From contig CAWGEI010000005.1 of assembly GCA_963821585.1 (NCBI GenBank), forward strand, positions 782,627 to 846,626: 64,000 bases of DNA, given 5' to 3'. This DNA is from an uncultured Acidobacteriota bacterium. GTDB taxonomy: Bacteria; Acidobacteriota; Thermoanaerobaculia; Gp7-AA8. This document shows, in pieces, positions 18,021 through 36,949 of the stretch. The position numbers were made by a program, and so were the translations under genes. How positions within the stretch are numbered: position 1 is the stretch's first letter; the number at the start of each line of letters is the position of its first letter. Below the pieces are notes generated by a model that did no database searches, was not told the origin of the DNA, and saw nothing but the letters and a program-made list of their open reading frames with translations.

Positions 18021-19845
18021 CGCCGATCGCGCCCAGGGCGTCGAGGTACTGGGTCACGTCCTCGAGAGGTACGGGCGCGTGGATCGCGGAGAGCATGTCC
18101 CGGATCTCCGCGTCGGTGCGCGTGCCGTCCCACAGGTTCAGCGCCTCGTAATGGGAGTCCGGGTCGAGGCGGATGGCCGGGCCGGTGTAGTGATCGGCGA
18201 AGTAGTCGTAGCCGAACGCGCTCATCGTTCCCTTCACCTTCCGCGCGGACGTGATGTGCTCGCCGCGGAAGAAGCGGTCGACCGAGGCGCGCATCCCGCG
18301 CTCGTACCACTCGGAGAACGGGAGCGTCCCGCGGCGCATCGCCCGTGCGCGGCGCTCCAGCGCGAACGGCTCCATCATCTTCTGCAGCGCGGGAGCGTCG
18401 TCCGTGGTGATCGTCGCGAGCGCGTAGCCGCTCGCGGCCGCGATGAACGCGGCGCGGCCGAGCTTCGTCGAGTCGATGTTCGCCGGGACGTCGAGGTTCG
18501 TATGGATGTAGCGGTCCGGCCAGTCATTCAGGTAGATGGCCGGGATGCCGAACGAGCTGTCGCTGTAGACCTGATGATCGCTGCCCCCGGAGAACGGCGC
18601 GAGCTCCGCGCGCAGCGGATCCTTGCTGCCGTCGCTCGCGATCAGCGGGAACGGAGCGGTCCCCGTCTTCGCGAACGCTGCCGTCTGTTCGTTGACGAAC
18701 ATGGCGACGGAATCCGCGAGGTCGTACACGAACGACGGCTGCGACGCCGGCCCGCGCGTCACGTGGAAGATCGCCTTTGTCTCCGGGCCGCCGCCGACCA
18801 TGTCCAGGTGGACGGCCGCGCGGATGTTCTTCGCGAGCTGCGGGCGTCCGTTCAGCAGTGCGAGCGTCCCTTCCACCTCCGGTGGCCAGACGAAGCGGAT
18901 CGTCCGCCGCGGCGGCGCGAGGCGCTTCTCCGCGATGAGCTTCGAGAGCATCCGCGCCGCTTCCAGGATCGACGCGCAGCCGCTGGCGTTGTCGTTCGCG
19001 CCCGGCCGCGGGTGGTCGAGGTGACAGCTGAACACGATCTCGCCCGGCTCGCTGCCGGGGATCGTCGCCGTGGCGATGTTGTAGTCGGCGTTCTCCTGCC
19101 CGGCGACGACTTTCGCGTGCAGGCGGATCGTCGCGGCGGAGCCCAGCCGCTGCTGCAGCCCGCGGGCGGTCTTGAGCGAGACCATGAACGCGAACGTCTT
19201 GTCCGCGGAGAACGTCTCCAGATGCCCCCAGCGCACGAGATTGTCGTTCTCGCCGTACCACGCCGTGCGCTGGTTCTGCGCGTAGCTGACGATCCCCACC
19301 GCGCCGCGCGACAACGCCTTCGCGGCCACCGGCCCCGGCTGCGCCGACGCGAGCACGACCTTTCCGCGCACGTCCTTGTTCGTGTAATCCGCATCCGCCG
19401 AGCCCGCCCCGACGTCAATTAACTCCGCCGTCACGTCCGCGGACACGCTGTCCTGCGCGAGAGAGATCGGCGAAGCCTCCCAGCTCGCGATCCGCATCCC
19501 GTGCGCGCCGTTCCCGTCGAGCTCCCACAGCTCCGCGAACTCCGCGTTCCACGCCGGCCGCGAGCGCTGCGTGCCGTAGAAGATCTTCCCGTCCGTCGGG
19601 AACGACTCGACGTGCGCGTCCGCGTAGCCGTAGCGCTTCAGCTCCGCGATCACGAGGTCCGTCGCATTGCGAAACCCGCGCGAGCCGCGCATGCGGTGCT
19701 GCCGCGCCAACCCTTCCAGATTGCGCTTCGCGGTCTCGCCCGAGACCTCGCTCGCCAGCGCGGCGAGCTCTTTGTCGGAGAGAAAAGGCAGTGTATCGCC
19801 GGCCAGCGGGAGTGTGACCAGCAGGAGCAGTGCAAGCTTACGCAC
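17986..19845 (-). CDS. M28-family metallopeptidase with PA domain
   Basis: Signal peptide MRKLALLLLVTLPLAG. HLDHPRPGANDNASGCASILEAAR zinc-ligand region. HLDMVGGG. GGSDHQVY. Confidence 0.85.
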   Translation of the reverse strand: MRKLALLLLVTLPLAGDTLPFLSDKELAALASEVSGETAKRNLEGLARQHRMRGSRGFRNATDLVIAELKRYGYADAHVESFPTDGKIFYGTQRSRPAWNAEFAELWELDGNGAHGMRIASWEASPISLAQDSVSADVTAELIDVGAGSADADYTNKDVRGKVVLASAQPGPVAAKALSRGAVGIVSYAQNQRTAWYGENDNLVRWGHLETFSADKTFAFMVSLKTARGLQQRLGSAATIRLHAKVVAGQENADYNIATATIPGSEPGEIVFSCHLDHPRPGANDNASGCASILEAARMLSKLIAEKRLAPPRRTIRFVWPPEVEGTLALLNGRPQLAKNIRAAVHLDMVGGGPETKAIFHVTRGPASQPSFVYDLADSVAMFVNEQTAAFAKTGTAPFPLIASDGSKDPLRAELAPFSGGSDHQVYSDSSFGIPAIYLNDWPDRYIHTNLDVPANIDSTKLGRAAFIAAASGYALATITTDDAPALQKMMEPFALERRARAMRRGTLPFSEWYERGMRASVDRFFRGEHITSARKVKGTMSAFGYDYFADHYTGPAIRLDPDSHYEALNLWDGTRTDAEIRDMLSAIHAPVPLEDVTQYLDALGAIGVIPRAGTSPSK

Positions 19846-20897
19846 GGTAAAGCGCCGCTCCCCAGTGCATGCCCGCGCCGAGGGCGGTGAAGCAGATCAG
19901 CATGCCGGGCTGGATGCGGCCGTCGGCGCGGCACTCGTGGAACAGGATGGGCAGCGTGCCTGCCGTCGTGTTGCCGTAGCGCTCCAGGTTGTGCGGGACC
20001 TTCTCCGGCGGCAGGCCGAGCTGCTTGGCCACGGCCTCGATGATGCGCAGGTTCGCCTGGTGGACCAGCAGCAGGTCGAGCTGCGCCACCTCCACCCCCG
20101 CCTCGGCGCACACCGCGCGCACGGCTTCCGGCATCTTTGCCACGGCCGCCTTGAACACTTCGCGGCCTTCCATGACCGGGATGTGCGCCGTCGCGTCGAT
20201 CTGTTCGTGATCGATGAACGGGCGGCGGCGGAAGCCGACGCCGGGGACGAACAGCGACTCGATGCTCGAGCCGTCGGTGTACAGCTTCGTCGCCAGCACG
20301 CCGCTGCCATTGTGCGATTTCTCGACCACGACCGCGCCCGCGCCATCGCCGAAGAGCACCGTGCGGTCGCGGATGGCCGTATTCGCCGCGTACTCCTCCG
20401 GCGTCACCTCGCGGTCCTCGGTGCCGATCGTGATTCCCCAACCGTTCGACCACGGCATGAACGGCGAGTGGACGTCCGCGCCGATGAGGAGAACGCGCCG
20501 GTACTTGCCGCTGGCGATCAGTGTGTCCGCGAGCTCGAGTCCGTAGAGGAAGCCGGAGCACTGCTGGCGGATGTCGAACGTCGGGATGGACTCGGGGAAA
20601 GCCCATCTTCGCCTGCACGATCGGGCCGTTGCCGGGGAAGAAGTAGTCCGGCGTCATGGTGGCGAAGACGATCGCGTCGATGTCGTCCTTGGTCTTGCCC
20701 GCCGCGTCGAGCGCCGCCTGCGCCGCGATGATCCCCAGCCCGGCGGAGCCCTGGCCGTCTTCGACGTAGTGCCGCGCCTCGACGCCGCTGCGCGTGCGGA
20801 TCCACTCGTCGGAGGTGTCCATGATGCGCGCGAGCATCGCGTTCGGAACGACGTGCTTCGGGATGCCGATGCCGCTGCCGGTGATGATGGAGGTCAT
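19838..20897 (-). pseudogene. fabH: 3-oxoacyl-ACP synthase III, interrupted by a 1-nt frameshift (or consensus error)
   Basis: The N-terminal frame (MTSIITGSGIGIPKHVV...AKMGFP) and C-terminal frame (ESIPTFDIRQQCSGFLYGL...HQANLRII...GNTTAGTLP) join if one C of the coding-strand cccc (plus-strand gggg 20594-20597) is removed. Confidence 0.85.
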
Positions 20898-20923
20898 CGT
20901 TGTGGGGCGCAGCTTATCCTTAA

Positions 20924-20985
20924 ACGTAGGGCGTGGCTTCAGCCCGCCTCCCCCGGGGCGGGCGGGCTGAAGCCACGCCCTACGT
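20924..20985. repeat. Hairpin repeat acgtagggcgYggcttcagcccgcc...ggcgggctgaagccRcgccctacgt (family A, copy 1)
   Basis: Near-perfect ~26-bp arms between the hslO stop and fabH start on the minus strand. Confidence 0.85.
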
Positions 20986-20986
20986 C

Positions 20987-21871
20987 TCACGCGTCGTGTT
21001 TGGCGGTCAGCGTCAGCAGGTCATGCGCGGTGAACTGATACTTCCTTCCGCAGAACTGGCACTGCACCTCCGTCCCGCCCTCTGACAGCATCGACTCGAT
21101 CTCCTCCTCGCCGAGGAGGGCGAGCGGCGTCAGCGCGCGCTCGCGGGTGCACTGGCAGGTGTAGCTCACCGGCAACGCCTGCCCCTCGTCGATCTGCTTG
21201 TAGCCGACGCCCTGCAGCACTGTCGCGACGACGTCCTCGATCTCCATCTTCTCCAGCAGCGTCGACAGCGACGGCGCCTCGCGGATGCGGCGCTCGATCG
21301 CGGAGATCGCGTCCTCGCTCGCGTGCGGGAAGGCCTGGATGATCATCCCGCCCGCCGATGCCACCCCGTCCCGGCGATTGAACACGCCGAGGAGGACGGC
21401 CGAGGCGATCTGCTCTGAGTTCATGAGATACCGGGTGAGGTCCGTCGCGATTCCCGTCCCGCCCAACAGTAGCTGCGACGTATACGGCTTCCCCAGCGGC
21501 GGCGTGCCGCGGATGATCGTCAGGCTCCCGTTGCCGATCCCCATTTCCACGTCGAGCATCGGATCCGGCGGGACGGGATTCTCGACGTAGCCGCGCACGT
21601 GGCCAGCGTTCGTGCCGTCGGCAATGACTATCCCCAACGGGCCGTCGCCTTCGAAGCGGAGAGAGACGTACTGATTGCGCACGTCCTTGTCGAGCAGCCG
21701 CGCCAGGAGCACCGCGCCGGTCATGGCGCGTCCGAGGGCATCGGCGGCGACGGGAGAGAGGTCGAGGATCTCGCGCGCGGTGTCCACGGCCGTGGTCGTC
21801 TGCGCGGCGAGGACGCGGAAGTGGCCGTCGGCGGCCATTCCCTGAATGAGGCGGTCCTGAGTCTGCTGCAT
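20987..21871 (-). CDS. hslO: Redox-regulated chaperone Hsp33
   Basis: Typical N-terminus (DRLIQGMAADGHFRVLAAQTT) and C-terminal zinc centre CQCTRER...CQFCGRKY. Confidence 0.9.
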   Translation of the reverse strand: MQQTQDRLIQGMAADGHFRVLAAQTTTAVDTAREILDLSPVAADALGRAMTGAVLLARLLDKDVRNQYVSLRFEGDGPLGIVIADGTNAGHVRGYVENPVPPDPMLDVEMGIGNGSLTIIRGTPPLGKPYTSQLLLGGTGIATDLTRYLMNSEQIASAVLLGVFNRRDGVASAGGMIIQAFPHASEDAISAIERRIREAPSLSTLLEKMEIEDVVATVLQGVGYKQIDEGQALPVSYTCQCTRERALTPLALLGEEEIESMLSEGGTEVQCQFCGRKYQFTAHDLLTLTAKHDA

Positions 21872-21930: not shown

Positions 21931-22287
21931 ATGAAGCAGTCAGTAATCATCCTCGCGCTCGTGCTGGCGGCTTGTCAGGTCAACGACAAGACCGGCGAAG
22001 TCCAGCCTACCGCCGAGACCCAGACGGCCACCGCCGAGGCCGCGCAGCAAACCCGTGAGGCCGCGCAGGACGTGAAAGAAGGCGCCCAGAAGCTCGGCCA
22101 GGAGATCAAGGAAGGCGCGGAGCAGGTGCGGGACTCCGAGGCCGGACAGCGCGTCGCCGAGGGCGCGAAAGAAGCCGGCCGGGGCATCAAGCAGGGCGCC
22201 GGCGAAGCCGTGGAGGCCGCGGGCGAGAAGCTCGCCCAGGAAGGCCGCGAGGCCCAGGTGGAAGCGAAGAAAGCCAAGAAGCAGTGA
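21931..22287 (+). CDS. Small lipoprotein with Ala/Glu/Lys-rich helical repeats
   Basis: Lipobox LALVLAAC. Repeats [18 protein letters not shown]...[19 protein letters not shown]. Confidence 0.55.
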
Positions 22288-22349
22288 ACGTACAATTGCG
22301 CCGGCGGACGTGGACTCCGCGCGGCACAAATCAAAAGGAGGATTTCTGC

Positions 22350-22862
22350 ATGGTGAATTTCGGCAGGACCTCCGTTGCCGGCGAGACCCAGACGCTCAAG
22401 GTGGGAGACCAGGCTCCCGACTTCGAGCTTCCGAGTCATCGTGGTGGTAACGAGAAGGTCCGTCTCAGTGCCTTCCGCGGACAGAAGAACGTCGTGATCG
22501 TCTTCTATCCGCTCGACTGGACCCCCGTTTGAACGGTCCAGATGCCGTCGTATGAGGCCGAATCGGCCGATTTCGAACGGTATGATGCCCAGGTCCTGGG
22601 CATTTCGGTGGATTCCGTTCCCTCTCACGTTGCATTCGCAAAATCCATCGGCGGGATCACGACCTATCCGCTCCTCGCCGATTTCCATCCCAAAGGCGAA
22701 GTCTCGAAGAAATACGGCGTCTGGAAAGAAGACAAAGGCATCTGCGAGCGCGCCATCGTGATCGTCGACAAACAGGGCATCGTCCGCTACGTCGACGTCC
22801 ATGACATCGGAGAAGCGCCAGACAACGAACAGTTGCGCGACGTGCTCCGCGAGCTCGATTGA
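22350..22862 (+). CDS. AhpE-like peroxiredoxin with in-frame TGA (22530-22532) at the peroxidatic Cys position; candidate selenoprotein
   Basis: aaaggagga SD before ATG 22350. The track ORFs 22284-22532 and 22542-22862 are in the same frame. The sequence reads [14 protein letters not shown][TGA]TVQM where peroxiredoxins have FYPxxFTxxC. Confidence 0.7.
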
Positions 22863-22909: not shown

Positions 22910-23593
22910 ATGCTCAACATCGCACGCAAGTGCGTCCCCTTCACCCCCTACGACAAAGACCTCTCCTCCGCGACCGTCACGCTCGTCTGCGCGACCGGCG
23001 TCTTCCTCGCGGACCAGGAACCGTTTCCGCTCGAGGACCCGGGGGACATCAGCTATCGCGTCATCCCCGCGGACGCTGACCTCGGCTCGATGAAGATCGT
23101 CCACGGGCACTACGACCACAGCGAGGCCGACGCCGATCCGAACATCGTCTTCCCGCTGGAGGCCCTGCGCCAGCTCGCGGCCGACGGCGTCATCGGCGCG
23201 GTGAACGACAAGCACTACAGCTTCGGCTTCACTACCCGCCTCAAGGACCTGTACGAGATTGCGTATCCCGAGGTCGCGGACAAAGTCGAGCGCTCGAAGA
23301 CCAAGCTCGTATTGCTGGCCGCCGGCTGCCCCGAGACCTGCCACCGCGCCGTCGGCAACCTCGCGCGCGAGATCGAGTCGCACGGCGTTCCCACCATCAT
23401 CATCAGCGCGTCGCCCGCCGCCACCGCATCCGTCCGCCCGCCGCGCGCGATGACCTGGGAAGGCGCCGCGATCGGCCGCATCGTCGGGCGCGCCGGCGAC
23501 CGCGAGCAGCACAAACAGATCGTGCGCGCCGCGCTGCAGATGTTTACCCACGACACGCCCCCCGGCAAAGTGATAATCAAGAACGTACGATGA
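22910..23593 (+). CDS. GrdB/PrdB-family (selenoprotein B-like) protein, Cys form
   Basis: Family-typical THxHYDHSEADADPNIVFPL and LLAAGCPETCH...IESHGVPTI, where Sec-containing members carry G-U-x-x-C-H. Confidence 0.65.
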   Translation: MLNIARKCVPFTPYDKDLSSATVTLVCATGVFLADQEPFPLEDPGDISYRVIPADADLGSMKIVHGHYDHSEADADPNIVFPLEALRQLAADGVIGAVNDKHYSFGFTTRLKDLYEIAYPEVADKVERSKTKLVLLAAGCPETCHRAVGNLAREIESHGVPTIIISASPAATASVRPPRAMTWEGAAIGRIVGRAGDREQHKQIVRAALQMFTHDTPPGKVIIKNVR

Positions 23594-24420
23594 CGACCTT
23601 TCCTCCCATCGGCTTCGGCGGCATGCCGCTCTCCATTCAGGGACGTCCCGACCAGGAGCAGGGCCGCCGCGTGCTGAGCGCGGCGGTCGACGCGGGGATG
23701 ACGTTCGTGGACACGGCGGACGTCTATTGTTTCGACGACCGCGACATCGGCCACAACGAGCGCCTCATCGCCTACGCCATCGGCGGCCGCGACGACGTCC
23801 GCATCGCCACGAAGGCGGGCCTGCGCCGCCCGAAGGGCGCGTGGACGAACGACGCGACGCCCGCGCACATCCGCGAGGCGTGCGAGCAGAGCCTGCGCTC
23901 GCTGAAGACGGATCGCATCTGGCTCTATCAACTGCACGGGCCCGATCCGAAGGTCGCCTTCGAGAAGAGTGTCGAGGCCTTCGCGGAGCTGCAGCGCGAG
24001 GGCAAGTTCGAGCACTTCGGTCTGAGCAACGTCAGCGTCGCGCAGATCGATCAGGCACGCGCGATCCTGCCGGTCGTCACCGTGCAGAACCGCCTCAATC
24101 CGTACTTCCGCGAGAACGTGGAGGTCGCGAAAGCCTGCGCGGAGCGCGGCATCACGTTCCTCGCGTACAGCCCTGTCGGCGGCGGACGCCTGGCGAAGAA
24201 GCTCCACCGGTTCGACGTGCTGATCGAGCTCGCGCAGAAGCACGACCGCAGCGTGCACGCGATCGTGCTGGCATGGGTGCGCGCGCAGGGGGCGACGGTG
24301 GTGCCGATCCCCGCGGCGCGCACCGTCGAGCACGCAGTCGACAGCGCGCGCGCCGCGGACCTCGTGCTGTCGCCCGAGGAGATTGCGGCGATCGACGAGA
24401 CGGAGTTCGACCGCGCGTAA
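23590..24420 (+). CDS. Aldo/keto reductase
   Basis: FVDTADVY, IATKAG, LQLHGPD, GLSNV, VQNRLNP, AYSPVGGG. ATGA overlap with the upstream gene. Confidence 0.9.
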   Translation: MTTFPPIGFGGMPLSIQGRPDQEQGRRVLSAAVDAGMTFVDTADVYCFDDRDIGHNERLIAYAIGGRDDVRIATKAGLRRPKGAWTNDATPAHIREACEQSLRSLKTDRIWLYQLHGPDPKVAFEKSVEAFAELQREGKFEHFGLSNVSVAQIDQARAILPVVTVQNRLNPYFRENVEVAKACAERGITFLAYSPVGGGRLAKKLHRFDVLIELAQKHDRSVHAIVLAWVRAQGATVVPIPAARTVEHAVDSARAADLVLSPEEIAAIDETEFDRA

Positions 24421-24463
24421 ATTGCTTTATTCTTCGCAGTTCGAAGGGGGCACACGACAGGAA

Positions 24464-26440
24464 TTGACCACGACGCCAGAGATCATCGAAGCGCAGCAGC
24501 AGACCCGGGACGGCCAGAACGGCTGGACGATCGAAGACGCGGTCTCGCTCTACATGATCGACCGCTGGGGCGCGGGCTATTTCACGTCGCGGAAAACGGC
24601 GACATGACCGTTGCGCCGCTGCAGCAGAAAGGCATCGCCGTCCCGATCATCGACGTCGTGCGCGAGGCGCAGACGATGAACCTCTCGACACCGCTGCTGG
24701 TCCGGTTCCAGGATCTGCTGCGGCATCGCGTGGAGACTGCTCAACCGCGCGTTCAACGACGCCATCGCGCGAGAACAAGTACCGCGGCGCGTACCGCGGC
24801 GTGTTCCCGATCAAGGTCAACCAGCTGCGCGAGGTGGTCGAGGAGATCCTCGACGCCGGCCGGCCGTACCACTACGGCATCGAGGTCGGCTCCAAGCCGG
24901 AGATGTTCGCCGGCCTGGCGGTCCACACCGACCCCGAGTCGCTCATCATCTGCAACGGCTACAAGGACGACACCTACATCCGCACGGCGCTGATCGGGCG
25001 CAAGCTCGGGAAGAAGGTCATCCTCATCGCCGAGAAGATCTCCGAGGTGGCGCACGATCGTCGCGCATCGCCGCGGAGATGGGCGTGGAGCCGTATGATC
25101 GGCCTGCGCGTCCGCCTGCTCTCGAAGGGCGCCGGCAAGTGGGCCGACCTCGGGCGGCGAGCACGCGAAGTTCGGCCTCTCCACGGCGGAGATCCTCGAG
25201 GCCACGAGATCATGGAGCAGGCGGGGATGGCGTCGCGCGTTCAAGCTCCTCCACTTCCACATCGGCTCGCAGATCCCGGACATCCTGACGATCAAGCGCG
25301 CCGTGCGCGAGGCGGCGCATGTACTACGCGAAGCTGCGGCAAGAGCGGGCACGCCATCGAGTACCTCGACGTCGGCGGCGGCCTGGCCATCGACTACGAC
25401 GGCTCGCGCTCGACGTTCCACTCGTCGATGAACTACTCCGTCGAGGAGTACGCGCGCGACATCGTCTACAACATCATCGACGTCTGCGACGACGAGAAGG
25501 TGCCGCATCCGAACATCGTCTCGGAGTCGGGCCGGGCGATCGTCGCGCACCACTCGGTGCTCGTGGTCGAGGCCTTCGGCGCGATCGAGAAGACGCCGCT
25601 GGACGTCGCGCGAGCTCCAGGCCGCCGGATCACAAGCTCGTCGCGCGAGCTGATCGACATCGACGAGAACCTCTCGCCGGAGACCTGCAGTCGAGTCCTG
25701 GCACGACCTGCAGCAGATCAAGGAGGAGGCGCAGACGATGTTCGAGCTCGGCCTGCTCGAGCTGGACGTCAAGGCGCGCGTCGAGACGCTGTTCTGGCAG
25801 ATCGCCGAACGGATGCAGTCGCTGGTGCGCACGATGGATCCGGAGGAAGTGCCGGAGGACGTCGCGCAATCTGAAGATCGAGCTGGCGGACCAGCACATC
25901 TGCAATTTCTCCGTCTTCCAGTCGCTCCTCGATCACTGGGCGCTCGGCGCAGCTCTTCCCGATCGTGCCGATCCACCGGCTCAACGAGCGGCCGCAGCTC
26001 GGAGTCGACGCTGGTCGACATCACCTGCGACTCGGACGGCAAGGTCTCGAAGTTCATCGATCTCAACGACGTGCGCGACACGCTGCCGCTCCACGACATC
26101 CGGCCGACGGAGCCGTACTACCTGGGCATCTTCCTGACCGGCGCGTACCAGGACATCATGGGCGACATCCACAACCTCTTCGGCCGGGTGAACGAGGTGC
26201 ACGTGTTCCTCGATCCGACGAGGAGTGCGGGCTTCTACATCGAGGAAGACATCCCCGGGACAGCCGATCGGCGAGGTGCTGGCCATGACCCAGTGGGACT
26301 GGCGCGACCTGGCGAAGCGGATGAAGGCCCAGATCGACGTGGCCATCAAGCAGGACCGCCTGAAGCCGAACGAGGGGATGCGCCTGCTCGCGGATTACGA
26401 GCGGGGCCTCAAGGACCAGACGTACCTGACCTTTGATTGA
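24464..26440 (+). pseudogene. speA: Biosynthetic arginine decarboxylase carrying ~19 single-base frame changes
   Basis: All SpeA hallmark blocks are present but spread over three frames (IDRWGAGYF, FPIKVNQLREVV, GIEVGSKPE, ICNGYKDD, GLRVRLLSKGAGKW, LLHFHIGSQIPD, YLDVGGGLAIDYDGS, SESGRAIVAHHSVL, CNFSVFQS, LVDITCDSDGKV, YYLGIFLTGAYQDIMGDIHNLFG). The start (TTG 24464) is tentative. Confidence 0.85.
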
Positions 26441-28947: not shown

Positions 28948-32593
<3,646 letters not shown>

Positions 32594-35335: not shown

Positions 35336-36949
35336 CTACGACGCGCTCTTGAACTCCACGCCGGCGTTTTCCTTCTGCGCGTAGTCCAGCTCCCAGTCTG
35401 ACGTGAACAACACGACCGCGTGGTCGTTGCTGTCGGTGGCGACGCGGGCGCGGGTCGGGAGGGTCATGCGCGCGACCTCGTCCACGTCGCGGTCGACCCA
35501 GCGCGCCAGCTTGTACGGCAGCGACGCCATGGTCGTCTCCACTCCGTATTCGGTCTCCAGCCGTGACGCGAGCACGTCGAACTGCAGCTCGCCGACGACG
35601 GCGAGGATCGGCTCGGAGCGGAGGCCGTCGTGGACGACGAAGACCTGCATCGCGCCTTCCTCCTCGAGCTGTGCGAGTCCCTTCTGGAACTGCTTCTGCC
35701 GCGTGACCTGCTTCGCGCGCAGGGTCGCGAAGTGCTCGGGGGCGAAGCGGGGGATGCGGTCGAACTCGATGGGCGTCTCCGAGGCGACGGTGTCGCCGAT
35801 CTGGAAGATGCCCGGGTTGACGAAGCCGATCACGTCGCCGGGATAGGCCTTCTCCACGCCCACGCGCTCCTGCGCGAACAGGCGGTGGGGGCGGGTCATG
35901 CGCACCTCGCGGCCGAGGCGGGCGTGGTGGACGAGCATGTCTTTCTCGAAGACGCCGGAGGTGATGCGCATGAACGCCAGGCGGTCGCGGTGGCGCTTGT
36001 CCATGTTCGCCTGGATCTTGAAGACGAAGCCGGTGAAGTTCGAATCGATCGGGTCGAGCTCGAAGTCCTCCCCTTTCGCCTTGGCGTGGCGCGGCGACGG
36101 CGGCGGAGCGAGCTCGATGACGGCGCGCAGGAACGGCTCGACGCCGAAGTTGTTCACGGCGCTGCCGAAGAAGACCGGGATGACCCGGCCATACTCGAAC
36201 TGCTTGCGGTCGAACTCCGCGCCCGCGCCGTCGAGGAGCTCCGCGGCGTCGCGCAGGTCCTGCCAGGCGGTGGGACCGATGGCGTCGGCGAGATGGGGAT
36301 CATCGAGGCCGCTGACCGTCATCGGCGCGACGGATGCGCCGTGCTTGGTCCGCTCGAAACGGAGGACCTGCTGGTTGCGGAGATCGAAGACGCCCTGGAA
36401 GGTCGGGCCGTCGCCGATCGGCCAGTTCATCGGCACGGCGTGGACCTTCAGCTCGCGCTCGATCTCGCTCAGCAGCTCGAGCGGATCCTTCGCCGGCTGG
36501 TCCATCTTGTTGACGAAGCAGAGGATGGGGATGTGCCGCATGCGGCAGACCTCGAAGAGCTTGCGCGTCTGCGGCTCGATGCCCTTGGCGCCGTCGAGGA
36601 CCATGACCGCGCTGTCGGTCGCGGCCAGCGTGCGGTAGGTGTCTTCGCTGAAGTCCTGGTGGCCGGGGGTGTCCAGCAGGTTGAGGACCGAGCCCTCGTA
36701 CTCGAACTGCAGCACGGTCGAGGTGATCGAGATGCCGCGCTCTGCTCGATCGCCATCCAGTCCGAGGTGGTGTGGCGCTGCTGCTTGCGCGCGCGGACCG
36801 AGCCCGGCCTCCTCGATGGCCCCGCCGTAGAGGAGGAGCTTCTCGGTGAGGGTGGTCTTGCCGGCGTCGGGGTGGGAAATGATGGCGAAGGTGCGGCGCC
36901 GGGCGACTTCGCGCTCGAGCTCGTCCACGGTCTCAGGAACAGCAGTCAT
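35336..36949 (-). CDS. prfC: Peptide chain release factor 3 (ORF intact but with an internal out-of-frame stretch)
   Basis: HPDAGKTTLTEK, DTPGHQDF, NKMD. Between ~36805 and ~36740 the annotated frame reads GLGPRAQAAAPHHLGLDGDRAE, while the +1 frame reads the expected SVRARKQQRHTTSDWMAIEQS. Confidence 0.9.
   Translation of the reverse strand: MTAVPETVDELEREVARRRTFAIISHPDAGKTTLTEKLLLYGGAIEEAGLGPRAQAAAPHHLGLDGDRAERGISITSTVLQFEYEGSVLNLLDTPGHQDFSEDTYRTLAATDSAVMVLDGAKGIEPQTRKLFEVCRMRHIPILCFVNKMDQPAKDPLELLSEIERELKVHAVPMNWPIGDGPTFQGVFDLRNQQVLRFERTKHGASVAPMTVSGLDDPHLADAIGPTAWQDLRDAAELLDGAGAEFDRKQFEYGRVIPVFFGSAVNNFGVEPFLRAVIELAPPPSPRHAKAKGEDFELDPIDSNFTGFVFKIQANMDKRHRDRLAFMRITSGVFEKDMLVHHARLGREVRMTRPHRLFAQERVGVEKAYPGDVIGFVNPGIFQIGDTVASETPIEFDRIPRFAPEHFATLRAKQVTRQKQFQKGLAQLEEEGAMQVFVVHDGLRSEPILAVVGELQFDVLASRLETEYGVETTMASLPYKLARWVDRDVDEVARMTLPTRARVATDSNDHAVVLFTSDWELDYAQKENAGVEFKSAS

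Follow-up and report, generated by a model that had tools for sequence, protein, structure and literature searches.

We analysed a 64,000-nucleotide stretch of DNA from an uncultured Acidobacteriota bacterium of the Thermoanaerobaculia (GenBank assembly GCA_963821585.1, contig CAWGEI010000005.1, positions 782,627 to 846,626 of the forward strand), which we call the window and number from its first letter. Its positions 22350-22862 very probably constitute an AhpE-like peroxiredoxin (Prx) gene in which the UGA at 22530-22532 is decoded as selenocysteine (Sec) by means of a structure in the mRNA downstream. The evidence comes from the place of this codon in the active site, its conservation and its alternation with Cys codons among relatives, and the presence after it of two hairpins in an unusual layout that are specific to the Sec forms.

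A peroxiredoxin gene interrupted by a single TGA

The open frame extends from the ATG at 22350 to the TGA at 22860-22862, and the TGA at 22530-22532 is its sole interruption. The first-pass annotation of this DNA had joined two open reading frames (ORFs; 22284-22532 and 22542-22862) into one AhpE-like peroxiredoxin with the TGA at the position of the peroxidatic Cys, and both parts of this reading held when the frame was read through. The resulting 170-residue product matched PF00578 (AhpC-TSA) over the entire profile (positions 1-124 of 124, E value 7e-39, 133 bits against a cutoff of 26), and its nearest solved structure was that of Mycobacterium tuberculosis AhpE (1xvw/4x1u, E value 1.5e-28, residues 14-167 aligned). 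The top seven Protein Data Bank (PDB) matches listed were all AhpE, six of them M. tuberculosis constructs (1.5e-28 to 3.9e-28) and the other 4xih (2e-27), with the 2-Cys peroxiredoxins ranking behind them (1e-24). The TGA column aligned with the Cys of FFPLAFTGIC in AhpE, which is its peroxidatic Cys45. Together with P54, T58, and R134, U61 aligned with the Pro, Thr, Arg, and Cys of the AhpE active site; Arg134, whose counterpart in AhpE is the catalytic Arg116, was kept in the 83 family sequences listed. The features of the gene were as follows.

22335-22341, forward strand: ribosome-binding site AAGGAGG, 8 nt before the start codon ATG 22350
22350-22862, forward strand: peroxiredoxin coding sequence, 170 codons, AhpE-like, one in-frame TGA (PF00578 match; AhpE the best PDB match)
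22509-22532, forward strand: active-site motif P54-x3-T58-x2-U61 (frame reading and alignment to AhpE and orthologues)
22530-22532, forward strand: putative Sec codon (UGA), residue 61, peroxidatic position (TGA/Cys codon alternation in related loci)
22743-22745, forward strand: Cys132 (in GICERA), two residues before Arg134, a possible resolving Cys
22749-22751, forward strand: codon of the conserved active-site Arg134, aligned with the Arg of GIANRG in AhpE

The gene matches the PxxxTxxU motif of Sec-peroxiredoxins (PMC13188914). With the NCBIfam PrxU equivalog NF040737 the protein scored 81.2 bits, below the cutoff of 270, and it is not a PrxU equivalog; from its sequence it is probably a member of a short AhpE-like branch. 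At the position of Cys132, Cys was present in 38 of the 53 Sec forms of the family and in none of its 30 Cys forms. This residue may be a resolving cysteine that co-evolved with Sec; it would not be obligatory, because 15 Sec forms are without Cys there.

Conservation of the TGA among relatives

One genome per species was scanned, which gave 80 related loci, the 45 closest of them all from Thermoanaerobaculia/Acidobacteriota metagenome-assembled genomes; for comparisons of Sec with Cys forms we used 53 Sec and 30 Cys forms, 83 family sequences in all. As for the codon that orthologues use, which the first-pass annotation had named as a check, the peroxidatic codon was TGA in 52 of the 80 loci and TGC or TGT in 28. 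All 45 Thermoanaerobaculia loci, at 72-93% amino-acid identity, had TGA, and the other TGA loci were from Blastocatellia, Pyrinomonadaceae, Terriglobales, Acidobacteriaceae, Chloroflexia, Anaerolineales, and Myxococcaceae. TGC or TGT occurred in remoter relatives and in one orthologue with the same synteny; around the Cys orthologue L081 the gene order was that of the window, namely Hsp33, a small ORF, Prx, a GRDB-family gene, and an aldo-keto reductase gene. Each of the 52 TGA orthologues contained one TGA, no other stop, and a complete and conserved N-terminal part, and almost all had an AGGAGG-like Shine-Dalgarno sequence before the corresponding 5' ATG. The truncated-pseudogene pattern for which the first-pass annotation had allowed was absent, as none of the 52 had a further lesion.

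Independent data also carried TGA and not TGC. Soil metagenome contigs covering 22300-22862 at approximately 97% identity differed from the window at many positions and at none of 22530-22532, and a soil metatranscriptome contig covered 22402-22669, across the TGA. Among the true stops in the window TGA was the commonest, ending 28 of 47 ORFs, and a search of the window for further genes with an in-frame TGA yielded only the boundary between the S16 and KH-protein genes and a shadow frame. As TGA ends most ORFs and interrupts no other conserved gene, the genetic code is standard, and a reassigned code was ruled out.

In a rough neighbour-joining tree Cys forms were nested among Sec forms and vice versa, a pattern that matches the dynamic and repeated Sec/Cys exchange described for the Prx family (PMC1794560). 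A search of protein collections returned full-length 170-residue relatives with Cys at the site (67-77% identity) and, in addition, hundreds of 106-residue entries (82-96% identity), all starting with MPSYEA and thus at the ATG just after the TGA, named AhpC or peroxiredoxin and gathered in clusters of up to 596 members (for example P0015, P0042, and P0048). Forms of about 153 residues with Trp at the site (P0007 and P0021) were found as well, and these may represent TGA translated as Trp by gene callers using another code. We concluded that the gene is systematically mis-annotated in public protein collections, where the selenoprotein is represented almost exclusively by the 106-residue fragment or by forms with Trp at the active site.

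Two hairpins follow the TGA in Sec forms

The 101-nt region around the TGA folded better than 200 of 200 shuffles (z = -4.26). To describe its structure we used a gap-free alignment (A1) of 51 TGA-bearing sequences and counted pairs for an explicit structure consisting of two adjacent hairpins, whose parts, assigned from pair counts and folding, are listed here.

22542-22583, forward strand: hairpin 1, 42 nt, starting 9 nt after the UGA
22542-22550 / 22574-22583: lower stem of hairpin 1, with one bulged A at 22576
22551-22555 / 22569-22573: 5x5 internal loop of hairpin 1
22556-22559 / 22565-22568: apical stem of hairpin 1, 4 bp, closing the 5-nt loop 22560-22564 (GANNN)
22585-22603, forward strand: hairpin 2, 19 nt, 1 nt after hairpin 1, with a 7-bp stem (22585-22591 / 22597-22603)
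22592-22596: loop of hairpin 2, GGUCC in the window and GGUCG in most orthologues

For the whole structure 89% of cells were paired in the 51 Sec sequences, as compared to 30-34% when the partners were slid, and there were double changes at eleven pairs; the covariation score was reached by 0 of 500 column shuffles. Within hairpin 1, pair 45-51 was CG in 32 sequences, GC in 12, and AU, UA, and GU in 1 each; pair 36-60 was GC in 35 and AU in 9; and pair 34-63 was UA in 27, UG in 10, and GC in 3. The variable residue at codon +11 (M, S, V, H, Y, and others) tracked the choice of GCC or GCG two codons earlier; because an amino acid covaries here with a synonymous choice, it is RNA pairing that dictates the amino acid. 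The loop of hairpin 1 was variable after its GA, with 21 different loops in 53 sequences. In hairpin 2, 98% of cells were paired; pair 72-88 was UA in 38 sequences and CG in 3, and pair 76-84 was CG in 45 and GC in 4, the switch in these four species being coupled to the replacements Q to E and V to F. Synonymous variability was also at its minimum for the gene in hairpin 2 (0.21 versus approximately 0.6-0.7 elsewhere): its codons GCC and GGC did not change in any of 45 sequences, and the rare TAT, GAT, and ATT were preferred. More generally, rare codons ending in A or T (TAT, GAT, ATT, and GAA) occurred where they pair.

Cys forms kept fewer pairs. The mean numbers of pairs kept in the lower stem of hairpin 1, the apical stem of hairpin 1, and hairpin 2 were 7.8 of 9, 3.6 of 4, and 6.8 of 7 in Sec forms and 3.2, 1.6, and 4.6 in Cys forms. 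Median folding free energies (ΔG) for Sec versus Cys forms were -17.9 versus -10.3 kcal/mol for hairpin 1 (Mann-Whitney p = 2e-11) and -11.5 versus -3.05 kcal/mol for hairpin 2 (p = 1e-13). The Cys forms L081 and L083, which are nested in the Thermoanaerobaculia Sec clade, kept 3 of 7 pairs in hairpin 2 (-0.2 and -2.8 kcal/mol) while encoding a nearly identical peptide. Note that the two-hairpin layout was predicted also in Sec forms of other phyla, at 45-55% identity and with different stem sequences. These results demonstrated that compensatory changes and rare codons preserve both hairpins in Sec forms, whereas Cys forms have lost them.

The first-pass annotation had pointed to two structures near the TGA and to a possible selenocysteine insertion sequence (SECIS) downstream, and the latter proposal was well supported by the conserved TGA, the Cys homologues, the intact frames, the covarying Sec-specific hairpins, and the TGA in independent assemblies and RNA. 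The structures themselves fared less uniformly. The perfect 7-bp stem that places the TGA in its loop (22517-22523 / 22535-22541) was present in the window but was not conserved: only 78% of its cells were paired, pairs 3-27, 6-24, and 9-21 were broken in 20, 18, and 29 of 49 sequences, respectively (37-59%), and there was no convincing covariation, so this stem is probably incidental. The hairpin ggccg-aat-cggcc (22556-22568) proved real as an apical hairpin; it is, however, only the 4-bp tip of the 42-nt hairpin 1, the fifth pair occurs only in the window, and the usual loop is 5 nt. Hairpin 2, the more strongly constrained of the two, had been overlooked.

Several further properties of this region were observed. 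The 5' arms of both hairpins open with the hexamer GAUGCC (22541-22546 and 22584-22589), so that hairpin 1 could offer its 5' arm as a second partner to GGGCAU, the 3' arm of hairpin 2; by base complementarity this would be an alternative long-range helix, possibly a conformational switch as the ribosome advances. The internal loop of hairpin 1 reads UAYGA / GAYUU and could be closed by tandem sheared G.A pairs and an A-U pair to give a continuous helix, with the same bases also fixed by conserved Tyr-Glu and Asp-Phe codons. As a candidate for hairpin 2 we considered a transcription terminator and rejected it, the hairpin being followed by only three U, lying inside the coding sequence, and being lost in Cys orthologues.

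Which hairpin would bind SelB

The bacterial SECIS consensus of Zhang and Gladyshev, in the summary form given in Fig. 2 of PMC13188914, has a loop of 3-9 nt on an upper stem of 4-16 bp, with G at the first two positions of the loop (GG or GU in most cases), a distance of 16-37 nt from the UGA, and a minimum free energy of -7.5 kcal/mol or lower. Hairpin 1 agrees with all four constraints of this consensus, having a 4-bp apical stem, a 5-nt GANNN loop, a distance of 27 nt from the UGA, and a median ΔG of -17.9 kcal/mol. Hairpin 2 comes closer than hairpin 1 to the loop pattern G[G|U] but lies 59 nt from the UGA linearly. Its unpaired loop was GGUCN in 44 of the 53 Sec forms and GGUUC in 6, and the Val codon within the loop was GTC or GTT in 50 of the 53 Sec forms and mostly GTG in Cys forms. 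When we inspected the SECIS of Escherichia coli fdhF, we found 18 nt between the UGA and GCA-GGUC-UGC, with the loop and its closing A-U pair as in hairpin 2. With hairpin 1 folded, the path from the UGA to the GGUC loop of hairpin 2 is 9 + 1 + 7 = 17 nt, compared to the 18 nt of fdhF. The GGUC loop is shared, moreover, with the hairpin that follows 17 nt after the UGA of the neighbouring PrdB-like genes in related genomes. In 128 kb (both strands) there were only 6 hairpins with a GGUY loop on a stem of 6 bp or more.

From loop sequence, synonymous constraint, and spacing we propose that hairpin 2 would be the SelB-binding element and hairpin 1 a folded spacer and possible pause element, an assignment that we consider about evenly balanced between right and wrong. 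The alternative, that hairpin 1 would be the SECIS and hairpin 2 an accessory, agrees with the published consensus and is a serious possibility, although we would sooner expect it to be wrong. If the GGUC hairpin at 59 nt is indeed the SelB site, current SECIS predictors that require 16-37 nt would miss such elements.

The PrdB-like neighbour

The gene directly downstream was identified as follows.

22910-23593, forward strand: gene for a PrdB-like protein of the selenoprotein-B family, 227 aa, in the Cys form (GCPETC; first Cys codon 23327-23329), matching TIGR04483 and PF07355

The TIGR04483 match had an E value of 4e-36 and 125 bits, below the cutoff of 300. A PrdB-like gene directly followed the Prx gene in 65 of 82 loci, from Acidobacteriota, Chloroflexota, and Myxococcota. 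Its G-C/U-P-x-x-C motif had Cys in Thermoanaerobaculia, including the window, and an in-frame TGA in 13 other loci (L040, L046, L051, L053, L057, L059-L061, L064, L065, L070, L071, and L074). Inspection by eye revealed a GGUC-loop hairpin approximately 17-20 nt past this TGA in the loci examined, although it was not clear for L061 and L065. The forms of the two genes, as judged from their codons, were combined in four ways.

Prx Sec with PrdB-like Cys: Thermoanaerobaculia, including the window
Prx Sec with PrdB-like Sec: L040, L046, and L051
Prx Cys with PrdB-like Sec: ten Ktedonobacterales/Chloroflexia loci
Prx Cys with PrdB-like Cys: the remaining paired loci

Because the pair is conserved and either partner or both can be a selenoprotein, gene content and codon usage suggest that Prx and the PrdB-like protein form a functional redox pair. 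Joining this to the preceding section, we put forward only tentatively, as somewhat more apt to fail than to stand, the view that the recoding signal belongs to an undescribed class of bacterial SECIS, in which an fdhF-like GGUC minihelix 59 nt away is brought to approximately 17 nt by a 42-nt hairpin, and that Prx and the PrdB-like protein make up a dedicated two-component peroxidase in which either or both may be selenoproteins across three phyla.

Single-base indels elsewhere in the window

Single-base indels break speA (24383-26430), fabH (19838-20990), metH (approximately 30150-30972), and prfC (approximately 36700-36900). In speA alone there were about 20; most of them are surplus bases in the window, often beside CGCGC-like contexts, and orthologous loci and independent soil assemblies were without the extra bases. 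The Prx, PrdB-like, and aldo-keto reductase genes read as intact ORFs in the window. The window thus probably comes from an indel-prone, perhaps long-read, assembly, and the broken genes are probably not true pseudogenes.

Weighing the alternatives

Several results weigh against decoding of the UGA as Sec through these hairpins. Neither the 64-kb window nor the flanks of the 83 related loci yielded selA, selB, selD, or a tRNA-Sec: ARAGORN detected no tRNA, and hence no tRNA-Sec, in the window, and tblastn searches of the window and loci with E. coli SelD and SelB gave a cross-match to PrfC and one weak unidentified match (E value 7e-5). Default RNAalifold recovered hairpin 2 and a weak helix around the UGA, not hairpin 1, and neither an Rfam scan of the window at gathering thresholds nor a permissive scan of 22480-22680 found a meaningful family. 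At 59 nt hairpin 2 falls outside the published range of 16-37 nt, and a conserved Val codon begins with the very G and U that are invariant in the hairpin loop. A covariance model (R1) built from 12 PrdB-like SECIS hairpins, and nearly sequence-specific, scored neither Prx hairpin (best 3.1 bits, E value 4.5), so that the likeness of hairpin 2 to the PrdB-like SECIS hairpins comes down to loop motif and spacing. The many single-base indels elsewhere show that the base-level accuracy of the window is imperfect, although the TGA itself was independently confirmed. Finally, the selenium at residue 61 is something that we infer from sequence.

Among the competing explanations the one that survives best, while still very unlikely, is that the UGA is read through without Sec, by near-cognate insertion of Trp, Cys, or Arg or by a lineage-specific suppressor, and that the hairpins stimulate read-through in a general way. 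It would account for the Sec machinery not being found in the window or locus flanks and for the W that some gene callers place at the site, and a hairpin 9 nt past a stop is, as is well established, also the geometry of generic recoding stimulators. However, the site is that of a redox-active Cys and alternates in homologues only with Cys codons, the signature of Sec/Cys exchange, and Trp or Arg at residue 61 would inactivate the enzyme. Furthermore, hairpin 2 carries the GGUC loop of a SelB-binding SECIS, PrdB-like neighbours in related genomes have TGA at the known Sec position, and Prx is an established selenoprotein family (PMC13188914).

Still less probable is that the TGA is a true stop and that the locus yields two polypeptides, one of 60 residues from the N-terminal part and one of 106 residues from the ATG at 22542, as most gene callers annotate. 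This ATG lies 3 codons past the TGA, and it is at its position that the hundreds of 106-residue AhpC/peroxiredoxin database entries begin; yet the Met is equally conserved in full-length Cys forms (..CSVHMP..), which makes it an internal residue, and the ATG has no ribosome-binding site. The catalytic residue would be missing from both fragments, each Cys orthologue is one protein of 170 residues in identical synteny, and the Sec-specific hairpins would be left unexplained.

That the TGA arose through an error in sequencing or assembly, or by a recent nonsense mutation, in a gene that really has TGC/TGT or is a pseudogene has a negligible chance of being correct despite the frameshifting indels in speA, fabH, metH, and prfC, since the TGA is shared by 52 independently assembled genomes and by independent soil assemblies, the errors of the window are indels and not substitutions, no orthologue has a second lesion, both halves of the gene are conserved, and a Sec-specific RNA structure follows the TGA; for practical purposes, then, error, pseudogene, and reassigned code are excluded.

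Proposed mechanism and its implications

We return to decoding of the UGA as Sec and propose the following sequence of events. A hairpin whose base is 9 nt after the UGA lies at the mRNA entrance of the ribosome when the UGA is in the A site, as is known from footprints and recoding stimulators. Hairpin 1 would therefore stand at the entrance at the moment of decoding, and the structured segment directly downstream would drive recoding, with the GGUC(N) loop of hairpin 2 binding SelB in the sub-model that we prefer. In the finished enzyme the selenol at the peroxidatic position (Sec61, with P54, T58, and Arg134) would attack the hydroperoxide to give a selenenic-acid intermediate, with which, in most Thermoanaerobaculia, Cys132 might first form an Se-S bond. 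The oxidized enzyme would probably be recycled by an external reductant, for which the co-transcribed PrdB-like C/UxxC protein is a candidate.

If this is correct, soil Acidobacteria possess a widespread antioxidant selenoenzyme that is invisible to standard annotation pipelines, and, once the gene is recognized, Thermoanaerobaculia stand out as probable selenium users. Its conserved association with a PrdB-like partner also points to a possible answer to the question of what recycles 1-Cys (AhpE-type) peroxiredoxins outside Actinobacteria.

Comparison with known systems

Sec-peroxiredoxins (PF00578, with TxxU/PxxxTxxU) are an established bacterial selenoprotein family (PMC13188914), whose prototype, PrxU of Eubacterium acidaminophilum, was, by the account in PMC13188914, validated experimentally in 2001 (Sohling et al.). 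In surveys the count stood at 12 genes in 2006 and at 91, from 78 organisms, in 2016; the Global Ocean Sampling (GOS) metagenomes had 253 (PMC13188914, PMC1794560, PMC5029168, PMC2398784). The statement in the first-pass annotation that Sec-peroxiredoxins are known in a few anaerobes must accordingly be corrected, as they belong to the more frequent families of bacterial selenoproteins (PMC5029168, PMC2398784). Acidobacteria have been listed with selenoproteins, 3 families and 4 proteins (PMC13188914, PMC1794560); our literature search found no paper naming both Thermoanaerobaculia and selenocysteine.

Like PrxU-type Sec-peroxiredoxins, the window protein has the AhpC/TSA fold, a putative Sec for the peroxidatic Cys in PxxxTxxU, a structured in-frame element after the UGA, and abundant Cys homologues. 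Unlike them, it is an AhpE-like protein of 170 residues without a C-terminal resolving Cys, it comes from soil Thermoanaerobaculia and not from Clostridia or Deltaproteobacteria, and its recoding signal would consist of two adjacent hairpins. With M. tuberculosis AhpE (Rv2238c; 1xvw, 1xxu, 4x1u) it shares the length class, the active-site Pro, Thr, and Arg, and probably the 1-Cys type of architecture; the differences are Cys45 in AhpE versus the proposed Sec61 here, and the extra Cys132 near the Arg that is often present in the window family. AhpE is recycled by the mycothiol/mycoredoxin-1 system, which Acidobacteria are not known to have.

The E. coli fdhF SECIS resembles the window structure in being a hairpin within the coding sequence 3' of the UGA, and hairpin 2 shares its apical CA-GGUC-(N)-UG. 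In fdhF, however, a single hairpin puts the GGUC at 18 nt from the UGA, whereas in the window it lies at 59 nt, and at 17 only with hairpin 1 folded; moreover, the window hairpin has no bulged U. The neighbour resembles the PrdB/GrdB family in its full-length similarity to PrdB and in its UxxC-type motif, the first position of which is TGA in the 13 related loci; it differs in scoring below the PrdB cutoff, in having no PrdA or other Stickland genes nearby, in being paired with a peroxiredoxin, and in being a Cys form in the window. Sec-peroxiredoxins as such were already known, and what we add to them here is the AhpE-like member of soil Thermoanaerobaculia and its two-hairpin layout.

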